Source of the DNA: an uncultured Methylomirabilota bacterium
Lineage (GTDB): Bacteria; Methylomirabilota; Methylomirabilia; Methylomirabilales; 2-02-FULL-66-22
NCBI GenBank assembly: GCA_963705305.1
Contig: OY970067.1
Location: forward strand, 5,088,001 to 5,152,000
Length of the DNA stretch: 64,000 nucleotides
Reading direction: 5' to 3'
A model generated the notes under the pieces. That model did no database searches. It worked only from the letters and a program-made list of their open reading frames with translations, and was not told where the DNA came from. This document shows positions 6,991-23,380 of the stretch, piece after piece. Both the position numbers and the translations under genes were made by a program. Position 1 is the first letter of the stretch. Every line of letters starts with the position of its first letter.

Positions 6991-7020
6991 AAGATATGAC
7001 AGATAATGCAACGTCCCCTA
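6991..7020 (+). repeat. Isolated right end of family-2 element; unoccupied IS110 target match
   Basis: AAGATATGACAGATAATGCAACGTCCCC resembles AAGCTGACTATACTTGCAACGTCCCC (16269-16294). Confidence 0.6.
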
Positions 7021-12624: not shown

Positions 12625-12769
12625 CGCTGACCCGAAAATAGCTCCGGCGACCAGCGCATGCGCAGCCCGTAATAGGGGACCCGGCCGTTTCTGCGCTGTC
12701 AAGGCACATTCCTCCTCGCGATGCCGAGTCCTGAACGCATCTCACACCTGCTGCCTGCCGTCGTTCCCC

Positions 12770-12955
12770 CGGGACCGCTCCCGGATGGTCTCTCACGCCC
12801 CACCGTAGTGGTCGCATCCGGCCTGCTCGCTGCCACCCGAGCGGCCTACCCGGCCTCGTCCGGGCTGCTGAGAGCGGGAGCGGCGCGCCAGGGTCCCCCG
12901 GCGGTCCCACCGGGCCGCCACGTTGCATGAATCGCGCTGCCAGCTCCCCGGGGAA
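12770..12955 (-). ncRNA. Putative IS110 bridge RNA in the 3' non-coding end (boundaries approximate)
   Basis: Two stem-enclosed internal loops: ATGCAACGT + GGGGAC match the target; GGCCGGGT + ACTAC match the circle-junction donor. Confidence 0.8.
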
Positions 12956-12980
12956 GACAGACGCTGTCCCGCCGGCCGGC

Positions 12981-14186
12981 TCAGCGGACCTGCCGCTGGA
13001 GCCCGCCCGTCCGGCGTGGGTCGTACGGGGTCCCGCTCCGCCACACGCCCCAGACGACCCGGAGCACTTTCGCCGCCAGTTCGACGATCGCCTTGAAGCC
13101 AGCGAAGCGGTCCCCCTGGCGCTTCGCTTTCAAGGCGGCGAGCCGGGCCCGCCCCGCGGCGGTCCGCGCCAGTCCCAGCGCCGCGTGGTACAGCGCCCAA
13201 CGCAGAAGGCTGCGCCCGCACTTGGAGATTCGCGCCTGCCCCGCGAACTGCCCGGATTGCACCCGCACGATGTCCAGCCCCGCGAGCTTCCGGAGCTGGG
13301 AGAACTTCGTGAACCAGGCGATGTCCCCGATCTCGGCCAGGAGGATCGCGGCCACGGTCGGCCCGACCCCCGGGATCGTCCGGAGGAGCGCGTAGGCCGG
13401 GAGCCGCTCGGCGAGGGGCGTCAGGGCCTGCTCGACCGCGGCGGTGCGGGCCTGAACAGCATCGACCTGGGCCCCGAGGTCCGCACAGGCCGTGGCGAGC
13501 CCGACCGGCAGCCGTCCCTTCGCCACCGCTGGGCGCCCGGGGGCCGCCGGCTCCCAGGCCTGGAGCACCGCCGGCAGCTCCGCCCGCAGGCGGTTGGGCA
13601 GGGGCTCCCCCATCGGCCCGAGGGCCGGGCGGAGGGTCGTGCGCCAGCGCGCCTTGCAGGCCGCCAGCTCGCTCCGGGCCCGGCGGAGGCACTTGACCAA
13701 GTGCCGCAACTCGACGCGGGGGCCATCGGGCCGGCTGTAGAACAGCACCTTCCCCTGTTCGAGGAGGTCGGCGCAGTTGGCGGCGTCCTTCCGGTCGCCC
13801 TTGTCCCAGGTCCCGTCCTGGGTCCGGCGGTTCCAGTAGGCCACGCTGCTGGAGAACAGGACAACGTCGGCGCCCTGCGTCTCCAGGAACACCGCGAGGG
13901 CCTGGTGGTAGGTCCCCGTGGGCTCGAGGCCACAGACCACCTCGCGGCACCCGGTGCTCCGCTGGGCCTGCTGGATCCGCGCCCAGAGCTGGGCGAAGCC
14001 CCGGGTGGTGTTCGGGATCGTGAGGGTGGGCACGACCACCCGGGTGTGGGCCTGCCGGAGGTGCACCACGTGTTCGACTTGGGCAACGTCGATCCCGACC
14101 AGGAGGCGCTGGCGGTTGATGCGTAAGGTGGCCTTCAGCTCCCGGAACCGCTTGACACGCGTGGCATTGTCTCGCATCGTAGCCAT
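12981..14186 (-). CDS. IS110 family DEDD recombinase/transposase (401 aa)
   Basis: VGIDVA, GLEPTG and KGDRKDA (DEDD RuvC-like); IPGVG and AGL...QSG in the C-terminal domain; GGAGG RBS. Confidence 0.95.
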   Translation of the reverse strand: MATMRDNATRVKRFRELKATLRINRQRLLVGIDVAQVEHVVHLRQAHTRVVVPTLTIPNTTRGFAQLWARIQQAQRSTGCREVVCGLEPTGTYHQALAVFLETQGADVVLFSSSVAYWNRRTQDGTWDKGDRKDAANCADLLEQGKVLFYSRPDGPRVELRHLVKCLRRARSELAACKARWRTTLRPALGPMGEPLPNRLRAELPAVLQAWEPAAPGRPAVAKGRLPVGLATACADLGAQVDAVQARTAAVEQALTPLAERLPAYALLRTIPGVGPTVAAILLAEIGDIAWFTKFSQLRKLAGLDIVRVQSGQFAGQARISKCGRSLLRWALYHAALGLARTAAGRARLAALKAKRQGDRFAGFKAIVELAAKVLRVVWGVWRSGTPYDPRRTGGLQRQVR

Positions 14187-14474
14187 GGGGTTCTTCCTCC
14201 TCTGTACGGGGTGAGTGGATGGCTCTCTGCACACCCCTACCAATAGCGAGGAAGAACCCCTTTTGGAACCTGCCATTTTCACCAGAAGGGGCCCAGACTG
14301 TGGGAGTCTAGTCGCTGGTACCTGGTTCATGCGGGTAATACTACGCTGCAAGTTTCGTCGTCTTGGAGCTGGGGACCCTGCCGGAATCCGGGCCTGGGAA
14401 AAAGGTCTCCCCGGCGGGGGCATATCAACCCAGGCCGAGAGAGTCTGAAGGGTCCCCGATTTCGAACACGCCCT

Positions 14475-16173: not shown

Positions 16174-16298
16174 TTGGAGTCGCTGCAATTTTCGTCGTCT
16201 TGGAGTTGGGGGGCCGGCCAGAATCTAGATCTGGCAGAATAGCCTCTCCAGCAGGGGCGCGTTAGCACAAGCTGACTATACTTGCAACGTCCCCCATT
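16171..16298 (+). repeat. 128-bp element (family 2) copy B
   Basis: TAATTGGAGTCGCTGCAA ... TTGCAACGTCCCCCATT; nearly identical to copy C. Confidence 0.9.
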
Positions 16299-22957: not shown

Positions 22958-23085
22958 TAATCGGAGACGCTGCAATTTTCGTCGTCTTGGAGTTGGGGGG
23001 CCGGCCGGAATCTAGATCTGGCAGAATAGCCTCTCCAGCAGGGGCGCGTTGGCGCAAGCTGACTAAACTTGCAGGGTCCCCGATA
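22958..23085 (+). repeat. 128-bp element (family 2) copy C
   Basis: TAATCGGAGACGCTGCAA ... TTGCAGGGTCCCCGAT imperfect terminal inverted repeat. Confidence 0.9.
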
Positions 23086-23168: not shown

Positions 23169-23380
23169 CATAATTGGGGACGTTGCCAATTTCGTCAACT
23201 TTCGGCGGTAACGACACCCCGCACCCCCACCCTCTTAACCCTCGGGGGCATCGGCCCCCATAATTGGGGACTCATGCAACTTTCGTCGTCTTTGAACTGG
23301 GGACCCAGGCGGAATCCGGGCTTGGCAGAAAGCTCTCCCTGGCGGAACAAGGTCAGCGCAGGCTGCCAGAACGCACCCCC
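23169..23380 (+). repeat. Two further family-2 left ends (23171, 23261); copy D lacks a clean right end
   Basis: CATAATTGGGGAC occurs twice; 23261-23380 aligns with the interior of copy A (GGAATCCGGG.TGG). Confidence 0.75.

Follow-up and report, generated by a model that had tools for sequence, protein, structure and literature searches.

A GT-core IS110-family insertion sequence with a predicted bridge RNA downstream of its recombinase gene in an uncultured Methylomirabilota bacterium

According to the available portions of the study by Durrant et al. (PMC11208160), the bridge RNA of the IS110 group is encoded in the left end of 'the vast majority' of elements, although not of all, and in 2024 a bridge RNA was predicted in the right end of 93% of the IS1111 elements; an end-to-end translocation of the RNA was postulated in the same work. 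In the IS1111 group, seekRNAs encoded downstream of the transposase were demonstrated experimentally and a long downstream non-coding region occurs in nearly all members, as stated in the accessible sections of the 2024 work by Siddiquee et al. (PMC11187229), which also note IS110-type elements with a 3' non-coding region as an exception. Here, we describe an IS110-family element at positions 12681..14344 on the minus strand of a 64,000-nucleotide stretch of genomic DNA from an uncultured Methylomirabilota bacterium (GenBank assembly GCA_963705305.1, contig OY970067.1, positions 5,088,001 to 5,152,000), which is referred to as the window throughout. This element is very probably an intact, recently active insertion sequence that moves by bridge-RNA-guided recombination, with its predicted RNA located downstream of the recombinase gene. 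The anatomy of the element, its copies and ends, the covariation of the RNA helices, the covariation of target guides and flanks, and the abundance of the target were computed directly.

Anatomy of the element and its recombinase

The element has a size of 1,662 bp plus GT, corresponding to 1,664 positions when one copy of the GT core (14344-14343) is counted; the second GT is located at 12680-12679. On the minus strand it is organised into a leader of 156 nt, a gene of 401 codons and 300 nt of downstream non-coding DNA. The genome, which consists of one contig of 5.65 Mb, carries three copies of the element that differ at 2 of the 1,664 positions and encode identical proteins, along with a fourth intact element showing 81% DNA identity and 71% protein identity to these copies. 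The flanks of the three copies are unrelated and have only the letters ..GCAGC on the left and GTCCCCTAT on the right in common, with the junctions reading ..GCAGC / GT AGTAT ... GGCCGG / GT CCCCTAT in each case. In the window, copy 1 splits a local repeat of about 80 nt, intact paralogues of which are located 2-9 kb away within the window. Comparison of the copies and of the uninterrupted paralogues placed the left target half (..AAACTTGCAGC), which forms the outer tip of a repeat, at positions 14345..14355 and the core copy with the right target half (GT CCCC TATT) at positions 12671..12680, both on the minus strand. Two uninterrupted paralogues read TTGCAGC-GT-CTCC (22975-22963) and TTGCAGC-GA-CTCC (16188-16176). 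Since the three copies reside in different flanks and uninterrupted paralogous sites are present, the boundaries and the shared 2-bp GT are supported as they had been given in a preliminary description of the locus, and the other copies have the same ends. With three copies in different flanks that differ at two positions only, and with an intact variant at 81% identity, the element is intact and recently active.

The recombinase gene (12981..14186, minus strand) specifies a protein of 401 amino acids, followed by a stop codon, with DEDD RuvC-like and Tnp domains that were assigned by means of Pfam, NCBIfam and sequence alignment. The Pfam domains PF01548 and PF02371 were detected with E-values of 3.4e-17 and 7.8e-22, respectively, and the NCBIfam model NF033542 ('IS110 family RNA-guided transposase') yielded 210 bits at a cut-off of 140. 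In an alignment to the recombinases of IS621 (8wt6) and ISCro4 (9t56), which is significant for the C-terminal half only (E 4e-13), the residues D33, E88, D131, D134 and S311 align with the catalytic residues of IS621, S311 standing opposite S241; the four acidic residues are invariant in the alignment of relatives (A3).

A predicted two-loop RNA and its guides

The region of 300 nt downstream of the recombinase gene contains a predicted bridge RNA core of about 160 nt with two stem-enclosed internal loops (12790..12948, minus strand), the target loop being located first and the donor loop second, within a conserved block at 12956-12763 (minus strand). By direct reading of the minus strand, loop 1 is closed by the stem GGGAGC / GCTCCC (12948-12943 / 12881-12876) and contains the inner hairpin GGCGG / CCGCC (12919-12915 / 12904-12900), and loop 2 is closed by the stem CTCTCA / TGAGAG (12874-12869 / 12795-12790) and contains the inner hairpin GGCCGCTCG / CGAGCAGGCC (12846-12838 / 12829-12820). 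Besides these stems and hairpins, all other motifs named in the preliminary description were recovered on the same strand, namely ATGCAACGT at 12928-12920, GGGGAC at 12898-12893, GGCCGGGT at 12855-12848 and ACTAC at 12809-12805.

Relatives of the element were collected from four sources. Species-representative genomes provided 10 loci with 82-90% protein identity, which are mostly labelled as metagenome-assembled genomes (MAGs) of Methylomirabilis or Methylomirabilota. Among 251 genomes from the phylum of the window, a match was present in 11, with the genus of the window accounting for 9 of these (out of its 20 other genomes), and 18 regions down to 56% identity were fetched; metagenome contigs contributed the best 80 of 290 relatives, with 81-89% identity. 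A protein database search resulted in 660 clusters at E <= 1e-20 among 8,000 scored candidates, the best 120 of which all have at least 86% identity, and judged by these clusters the recombinase clade is abundant. Beyond 57% protein identity, the nearest relatives are plasmid-borne, at most 32% identical and annotated only as 'IS110 family' or ISRel25. The RNA region was located in 100 loci, from which 78 distinct aligned sequences were obtained after removal of duplicates, fragments shorter than 170 nt, one remnant and two identical genomic copies.

Five helices were scored on these 78 sequences, comprising GGGAGC.GGC.GCGC with GCGC GCC GCTCCC, the inner hairpin of loop 1, CTCTCA/TGAGAG, GCCC/GGGC and the inner hairpin of loop 2. 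Standard pairs were found in 98.8% of the 2,962 cells that represent the 38 pairs of the five helices, and changes on both sides occurred at 19 of the 38 pairs, amounting to 202 cells. The observed value was attained by none of 500 shuffles on any of the helix measures, and slid controls, in which the partners were shifted by 1-3 columns, gave 6-29 both-sided cells and 38-53% pairing. Moreover, all helices but the outermost one were recovered independently by RNAalifold. The covariation of the five helices along with this agreement indicates that the RNA has a conserved two-loop architecture, as had been proposed for the right end in the preliminary description. A long-range pairing of the 5' CCCCGGG with a downstream CCCGGGG, which RNAalifold offered as a rival to GGGAGC/GCTCCC, was dropped, since distant relatives close the latter stem by compensating change.

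The predicted target guides are contained in loop 1. The left target guide, TGCAAC+GT (TGCAACGT; 12920..12927, minus strand), corresponds in sense to the left flank and the core and would pair with the bottom strand, and the right target guide, GGGG+AC (12893..12898, minus strand), is the reverse complement of GT+CCCC. The corresponding guides were taken from the relatives by alignment-anchored extraction. In these sequences, loop 1 has a constant ..AC-GT on its 5' strand that is preceded by hypervariable letters, and the flanks are variable too. A comparison of left guides and left flanks at positions -1 to -8 in 70 unique pairs, derived from 76 loci that have both sequences and a GT junction, resulted in 345 agreements versus 312.2 +/- 7.1 after permutation, a value attained by 1 of 20,000 permutations. 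The excess was observed at positions -3 (59 observed versus 49.1 expected), -4 (65 versus 59.7), -5 (41 versus 26.7) and -6 (21 versus 14.9). On the right side, 52 unique pairs from 79 yielded 329 agreements versus 314.4 +/- 3.8 after permutation (attained by 4 of 20,000), with an excess at positions +3 and +6 (40 observed versus 28.0 expected at +6); a G at flank position +6 was present at 12 of the 23 sites with a GTCCCGC-type guide versus 1 of the 38 with a GTCCCCC-type guide. Both target guides therefore covary with their flanks, in agreement with what the preliminary description had put forward for testing.

Individual relatives provide exact cases of retargeting. The element L042 (86% protein identity) has been retargeted on both sides, as the guide AGCTTC-GT is accompanied by the flank AGCTTC/GT and the guide GGGGCAC by the flank GT/GCCC, whereas L123 carries CTGGAAC in both guide and flank and L036 shows a guide-flank match of 9/9. 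Altogether, 16 distinct left-guide hexamers are present among the 70 unique pairs, and the switches of T for A and of G for C recur across elements of different identity classes. Considering the positions of excess and the exact retargeted cases, the working target guides thus comprise 6+2 and 2+4(5) nt. Of the 9-mer ATGCAACGT that the preliminary description had read as the left target guide, the match within the loop holds, but its full length as a guide does not, since the local target agrees in 7/9 positions and the covariation backs 6 nt plus the core (12927-12920). In many extant insertions, one or two positions deviate from the guide and are tolerated. The CC directly after the right target guide (12892-12891) complements the two terminal bases of the right end and was considered, in analogy to IS621, as a possible handshake guide, to which little weight was given as most relatives have AC there.

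In loop 2, the left donor guide GGCCGG+GT (GGCCGGGT; 12848..12855, minus strand) equals the right-end tip and the core in 8/8 positions, and the right donor guide ACT+AC (12805..12809, minus strand) is the reverse complement of GT+AGT at the left end in 5/5 positions, so that both donor matches of the preliminary description were reproduced. Among the relatives, the right end reads ..ACGGCCGG in 77/79, the left end GTAGTAT in 78/79 and the junction core GT in 77/79 cases; the left donor guide GGCCGGGT is retained in 83/98 relatives and the sequence CACTACG, representing the right donor guide, in 83 of the 94 that were read. Relatives down to 57% protein identity retain the same ends, and no informative intermediates were found between them and the plasmid-borne relatives.

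The possibility that these matches merely arose by chance in a GC-rich spacer was tested with 5,000 dinucleotide shuffles of the 300-nt region. Single matches were indeed common in the shuffled sequences, with 1,599 for the right target guide and 492 for the left target guide (4 nt plus core, owing to one mismatch), along with 121 and 122 for the left and the right donor guide, respectively. However, the left donor, right donor and right target guides were jointly matched in none of the 5,000 shuffles, and neither the covariation of the helices nor that of the guides with the flanks is expected from chance, so that this explanation was found wanting and has a practically negligible probability.

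Genomic target sites and mobilisation of the element

The 11-mer specified by the target guides, GCAAC-GT-CCCC (GCAACGTCCCC), occurs 72 times in the genome, compared with 22 occurrences of its GCAGC variant, 0-29 of the other single-substitution neighbours, and 0 and 6 of the reversed controls. At 54 of the 72 sites the 15 nt upstream are AT-rich, in a genome of 66% GC. Examples within the window, out of 94 sites listed genome-wide, are located at 1887-1897, 7008-7018, 16284-16294 (+) and 23176-23186 (-). Many of the target sites form the outer ends of inverted repeats on either side of units of about 1.05 kb with an IS200-like Y1 transposase gene, such as those at contig positions 2525659-2526725 and 4273689-4274755. 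The Y1 protein scored 31.6 and 27.6 bits with PF01797 (cut-off 23) and stayed below the cut-off of the NCBI model for REP-associated tyrosine transposases (RAYTs; REP, repetitive extragenic palindromic), with 60 and 51 bits versus 80. The GCAACGTCCCC repeats look like a REP/RAYT-type repeat system, and since the guide-specified 11-mer is mostly the outer tip of the Y1-flanking repeats, the predicted destination of the element is the tip of repeats from a REP/RAYT-like family. Targeting of REP-type repeats is reportedly known for IS110 elements, as Tobes and Pareja are said to have described in 2006.

Two further observations concern the repeats themselves. Directly outside several repeat tips, GTCCCC and the next 3-8 bases are tandemly repeated (for example GTCCCCTATTAC twice), as is the case at contig positions 503096, 481008, 482066, 3156923, 766740, 770534 and 927009. 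We know of no IS110 or Y1 mechanism that predicts such a tandem repetition, which could be the footprint of repeated insertion and excision. The repeat of about 80 nt in the left flank of copy 1 is present at 14345-14422, 16180-16259, 22963-23046 and 23260-23350, all on the minus strand and at most 9 kb apart; each copy terminates in a tip-like motif (TTGCAGCGT.., TTGCATGAGTCCCC), and copy 1 of the element lies inside one of them. This repeat was considered as a genome-wide REP and rejected, since it has only four copies, all of them local, and the true repeated unit is the short tip motif.

Several observations weigh against a bridge-RNA-guided mode of recombination and were taken into account. 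The relatives share kinship, and the permutation counts overstate their independence. The left guide shows no excess of agreement with flank positions -7 to -10 in the 70 unique pairs, and flank position -5 matches the guide in only 41 of them, so that many extant insertions are imperfect. Folding of the region, which the preliminary description had suggested as a check, did not distinguish it from random sequence, as the minimum-free-energy fold was not more stable than those of shuffles (z -0.37 and -0.34); this fold recovers loop 1, the z-scores are uninformative in a sequence of 66% GC, and the structure accordingly rests on covariation and not on energy. A search of Rfam at E <= 1 returned no family for the RNA region, the lone hit being a chance miRNA-like match in the leader on the opposite strand, and a scan of the linear element gave 0 sigma-70-like promoters and 0 terminators for the RNA. 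The right donor guide has a length of merely 5 nt, and neither donor guide is supported by covariation, which is uninformative in their case because the element ends are invariant among the relatives. Additionally, variants of the left donor guide are present in 15/98 relatives with no matching change of the end (GGCCGCGT in 7, GGCCGGTT in 5, GGCCGGCT in 2 and GCCCGGTT in 1), which argues mildly against strict pairing at the last left-donor position and the first core position; the left donor guide of IS621 spans only one core base. Finally, all three resident copies are inserted at GCAGC/GT (14345-14349 in the window, L002 and L003), which is a mismatch to the guide GCAAC. Among the empty AT-flanked sites, 54 belong to the GCAAC class versus only 3 to the GCAGC class, and the occurrence of all three copies in the latter has p ~6e-4, calculated as C(6,3)/C(60,3) for 60 equally likely sites from a small sample and with an ad hoc site class. 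It is proposed that perfect sites allow re-excision, and copies may consequently survive only where a mismatch hinders it.

Part of this evidence would suit an explanation in which a structured 3' untranslated region or a DNA end recognised by protein accounts for the conserved 3' region, which would not guide, and the matches arise secondarily from the conservation of the ends and of the target. The donor matches lack covariation as the ends are invariant, the RNA is predicted from the sequence, and most relatives share the target core CAAC-GT-CCC, so that some of the matching is accounted for by identity by descent. Nevertheless, the variable flank positions follow the guide, the two guides and the two flanks of one relative have changed in concert, and the layout corresponds to that of the IS621 bridge RNA in its order, in its strand rule and in the presence of the core within all four guides. 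A non-guiding role of the region is thus very improbable, and guided recombination is retained as the preferred interpretation.

For the mechanism of guided recombination proposed below, RNA expression, protein binding, the chemistry of strand exchange, the activity of the junction promoter and the role of the donor loop were inferred by analogy with IS621. The element would excise as a circle, and the joining of its ends would create a sigma-70-type promoter with TTGACA from the right end, a spacer of 17 nt and TAGTAT across the core and the left end. The putative -35 box TTGACA (12697..12702, minus strand) is located 16 nt from the right-end tip, a distance found exactly in 79/84 relatives, and the putative -10 half TAGTAT (14338..14343, minus strand) is formed by the second core base and the conserved left-end tip; as read from the sequence, a distance of 17 nt would separate TTGACA from the TAGTAT downstream of it in the circularised element, in which the ends are joined via one GT. 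The junction promoter would drive the recombinase gene along with the 3' non-coding region, and recombinase and RNA would hence be made together from the circle. Such a co-expression is suggested because the linear element has no sigma-70-like promoter and the junction halves are conserved; in the integrated copy, any expression would depend on read-through. The transcribed 3' region would fold into the two stem-enclosed loops, the donor loop would read the joined element ends by GGCCGG-GU and ACU-AC, and the DEDD/Ser recombinase would exchange strands at the shared GT. The element would thereby be inserted, without duplication, into GCAAC/GT/CCCC at the outer tip of the repeats that flank IS200-like Y1 transposase genes.

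The left end of the element is represented by the 156-nt leader, which has hairpins of its own. A leader hairpin (14187..14260, minus strand) with 13 perfect pairs is formed by 14260-14248 and 14199-14187 and extends as far as the start codon, with GGGGTTCTTCCTC paired to GAGGAAGAACCCC of the ribosome-binding region. Compensatory changes were detected in 74 distinct leaders, one pair being CG in 44 and TA in 23 of them and the next pair TA in 54 and CG in 15. Translation of the recombinase gene is probably occluded by this hairpin. A further conserved leader hairpin, CCCTT..AAGGG at about 14290-14258, covaries as well.

Other traces of IS110-family elements were observed in the same genome. 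Solitary right-end fragments of 35-132 nt (L009, L014, L015 and L017) end with ..AAACGGCCGG/GTCCC, have no recombinase gene nearby and are one-sided remnants of related elements; furthermore, a solitary RNA piece (L016) and a solitary leader piece (L005) were found. A second IS110-family element is present in three copies (L023, L024 and L025, at about 355 kb, 962 kb and 2,107 kb on the contig), and its recombinase is 38% identical across residues 225-348.

Comparison with described IS110 and IS1111 elements

The IS1111 elements with seekRNAs, namely ISEc11, ISKpn4 and ISPa11 as they are treated in the accessible sections of PMC11187229, share with the present element a guide RNA encoded downstream of the transposase, a promoter at the circle junction (predicted here), site-specific insertion without duplication and natural retargeting among close relatives. 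An ordinary IS1111-group element with a right-end seekRNA, which would imply the same mechanism in another sub-family, was therefore weighed as an alternative classification. In its favour, the non-coding DNA is longer downstream (300 nt) than upstream (156 nt) of the gene, in accordance with the long downstream region of nearly all IS1111 members (PMC11187229 and PMC11208160, in their available portions), and the RNA is encoded in the 300-nt right end and not in the left end as in IS621. However, the IS1111 elements have sub-terminal inverted repeats of 11-13 bp with terminal extensions of 7 and 3 bp, whereas the best end-to-end inverted match in the 45-nt ends of the present element is 4 nt and was reached by 1,995 of 2,000 shuffles, consistent with the lack of such repeats noted in the preliminary description. 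The protein of 401 amino acids is also longer than the 330-350 amino acids of IS1111 transposases, and the bottom-strand match is located 5' of the top-strand match, which is the IS110 order and the reverse of that in all tested IS1111 seekRNAs; moreover, a second loop, the donor loop, is clear in the RNA described here. An assignment to the IS1111 group is hence unlikely. By the feature criteria of PMC11187229, as far as its accessible sections state them, the element is read as IS110-type with a right-end (3') bridge RNA, since the three IS1111 features of repeats, protein length and guide order are absent and IS110-type exceptions with a 3' RNA have been published.

Among such exceptions, the IS110-type elements with a 3' RNA and ISPpu9 with its downstream Ssr9 RNA (PMC12288879, in its available portions) share the location of the RNA gene downstream of the recombinase gene, the insertion into repeats and the presence of solitary RNA or right-end copies elsewhere in the genome; these elements are likened here by description only. 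It is conceivable, and put forward tentatively as somewhat less probable than its opposite, that the element belongs to a clade of true IS110-group recombinases, distinct from IS1111, in which the whole two-loop RNA has moved to the 3' untranslated region of the recombinase gene with the IS110 guide order kept. Such a clade would represent a living intermediate of the end-to-end translocation of the RNA, and excision would be a prerequisite for the joint transcription of its recombinase and guide from the junction promoter. The clade would also constitute a natural collection of guides with changed targets, all combined with one protein scaffold, because the distal left target guide is hypervariable among recombinases that are about 87% identical.

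The mechanism as such, right-end bridge RNAs and GT cores have already been published, and the element does not change the known mechanism. It adds a well-documented lineage of bridge recombinases with a natural GT core and a 3' RNA from a phylum of the uncultured type, the relatives of the element being labelled as Methylomirabilota MAGs. Its guide can be read directly from the sequence, and this read-out predicts a real repeat family of the host with 72 copies.

The element shares with IS621 and ISCro4 (PDB 8wt6 and 9t56; Hiraizumi 2024, PMC11208158, and the available portions of PMC11208160) a recombinase of the DEDD and Ser type, the order of target loop and donor loop in the RNA, left guides in the sense of the top strand and right guides as its reverse complement, the presence of the core within all four guides, a promoter across the circle junction (predicted here) and a genomic repeat as the target. 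The RNA of IS621 and ISCro4 is encoded in the left end, in contrast to its location downstream of the gene in the present element, where the junction promoter would transcribe the gene first. The protein comprises 401 amino acids versus 326-341 amino acids in IS621 and ISCro4, the stretch between its two domains being longer by about 40 residues, and the core is GT instead of the CT of IS621, for which a GT core was tested previously and is accepted by the IS621 design tool. The guide lengths deduced here are 6+2, 2+4(5), 6+2 and 2+3, compared with 7+2, 2+5, 7+1 and a split right donor guide in IS621, and the 16 left-guide hexamers are useful for comparing the guide grammar of this lineage with those of IS621 and ISCro4.

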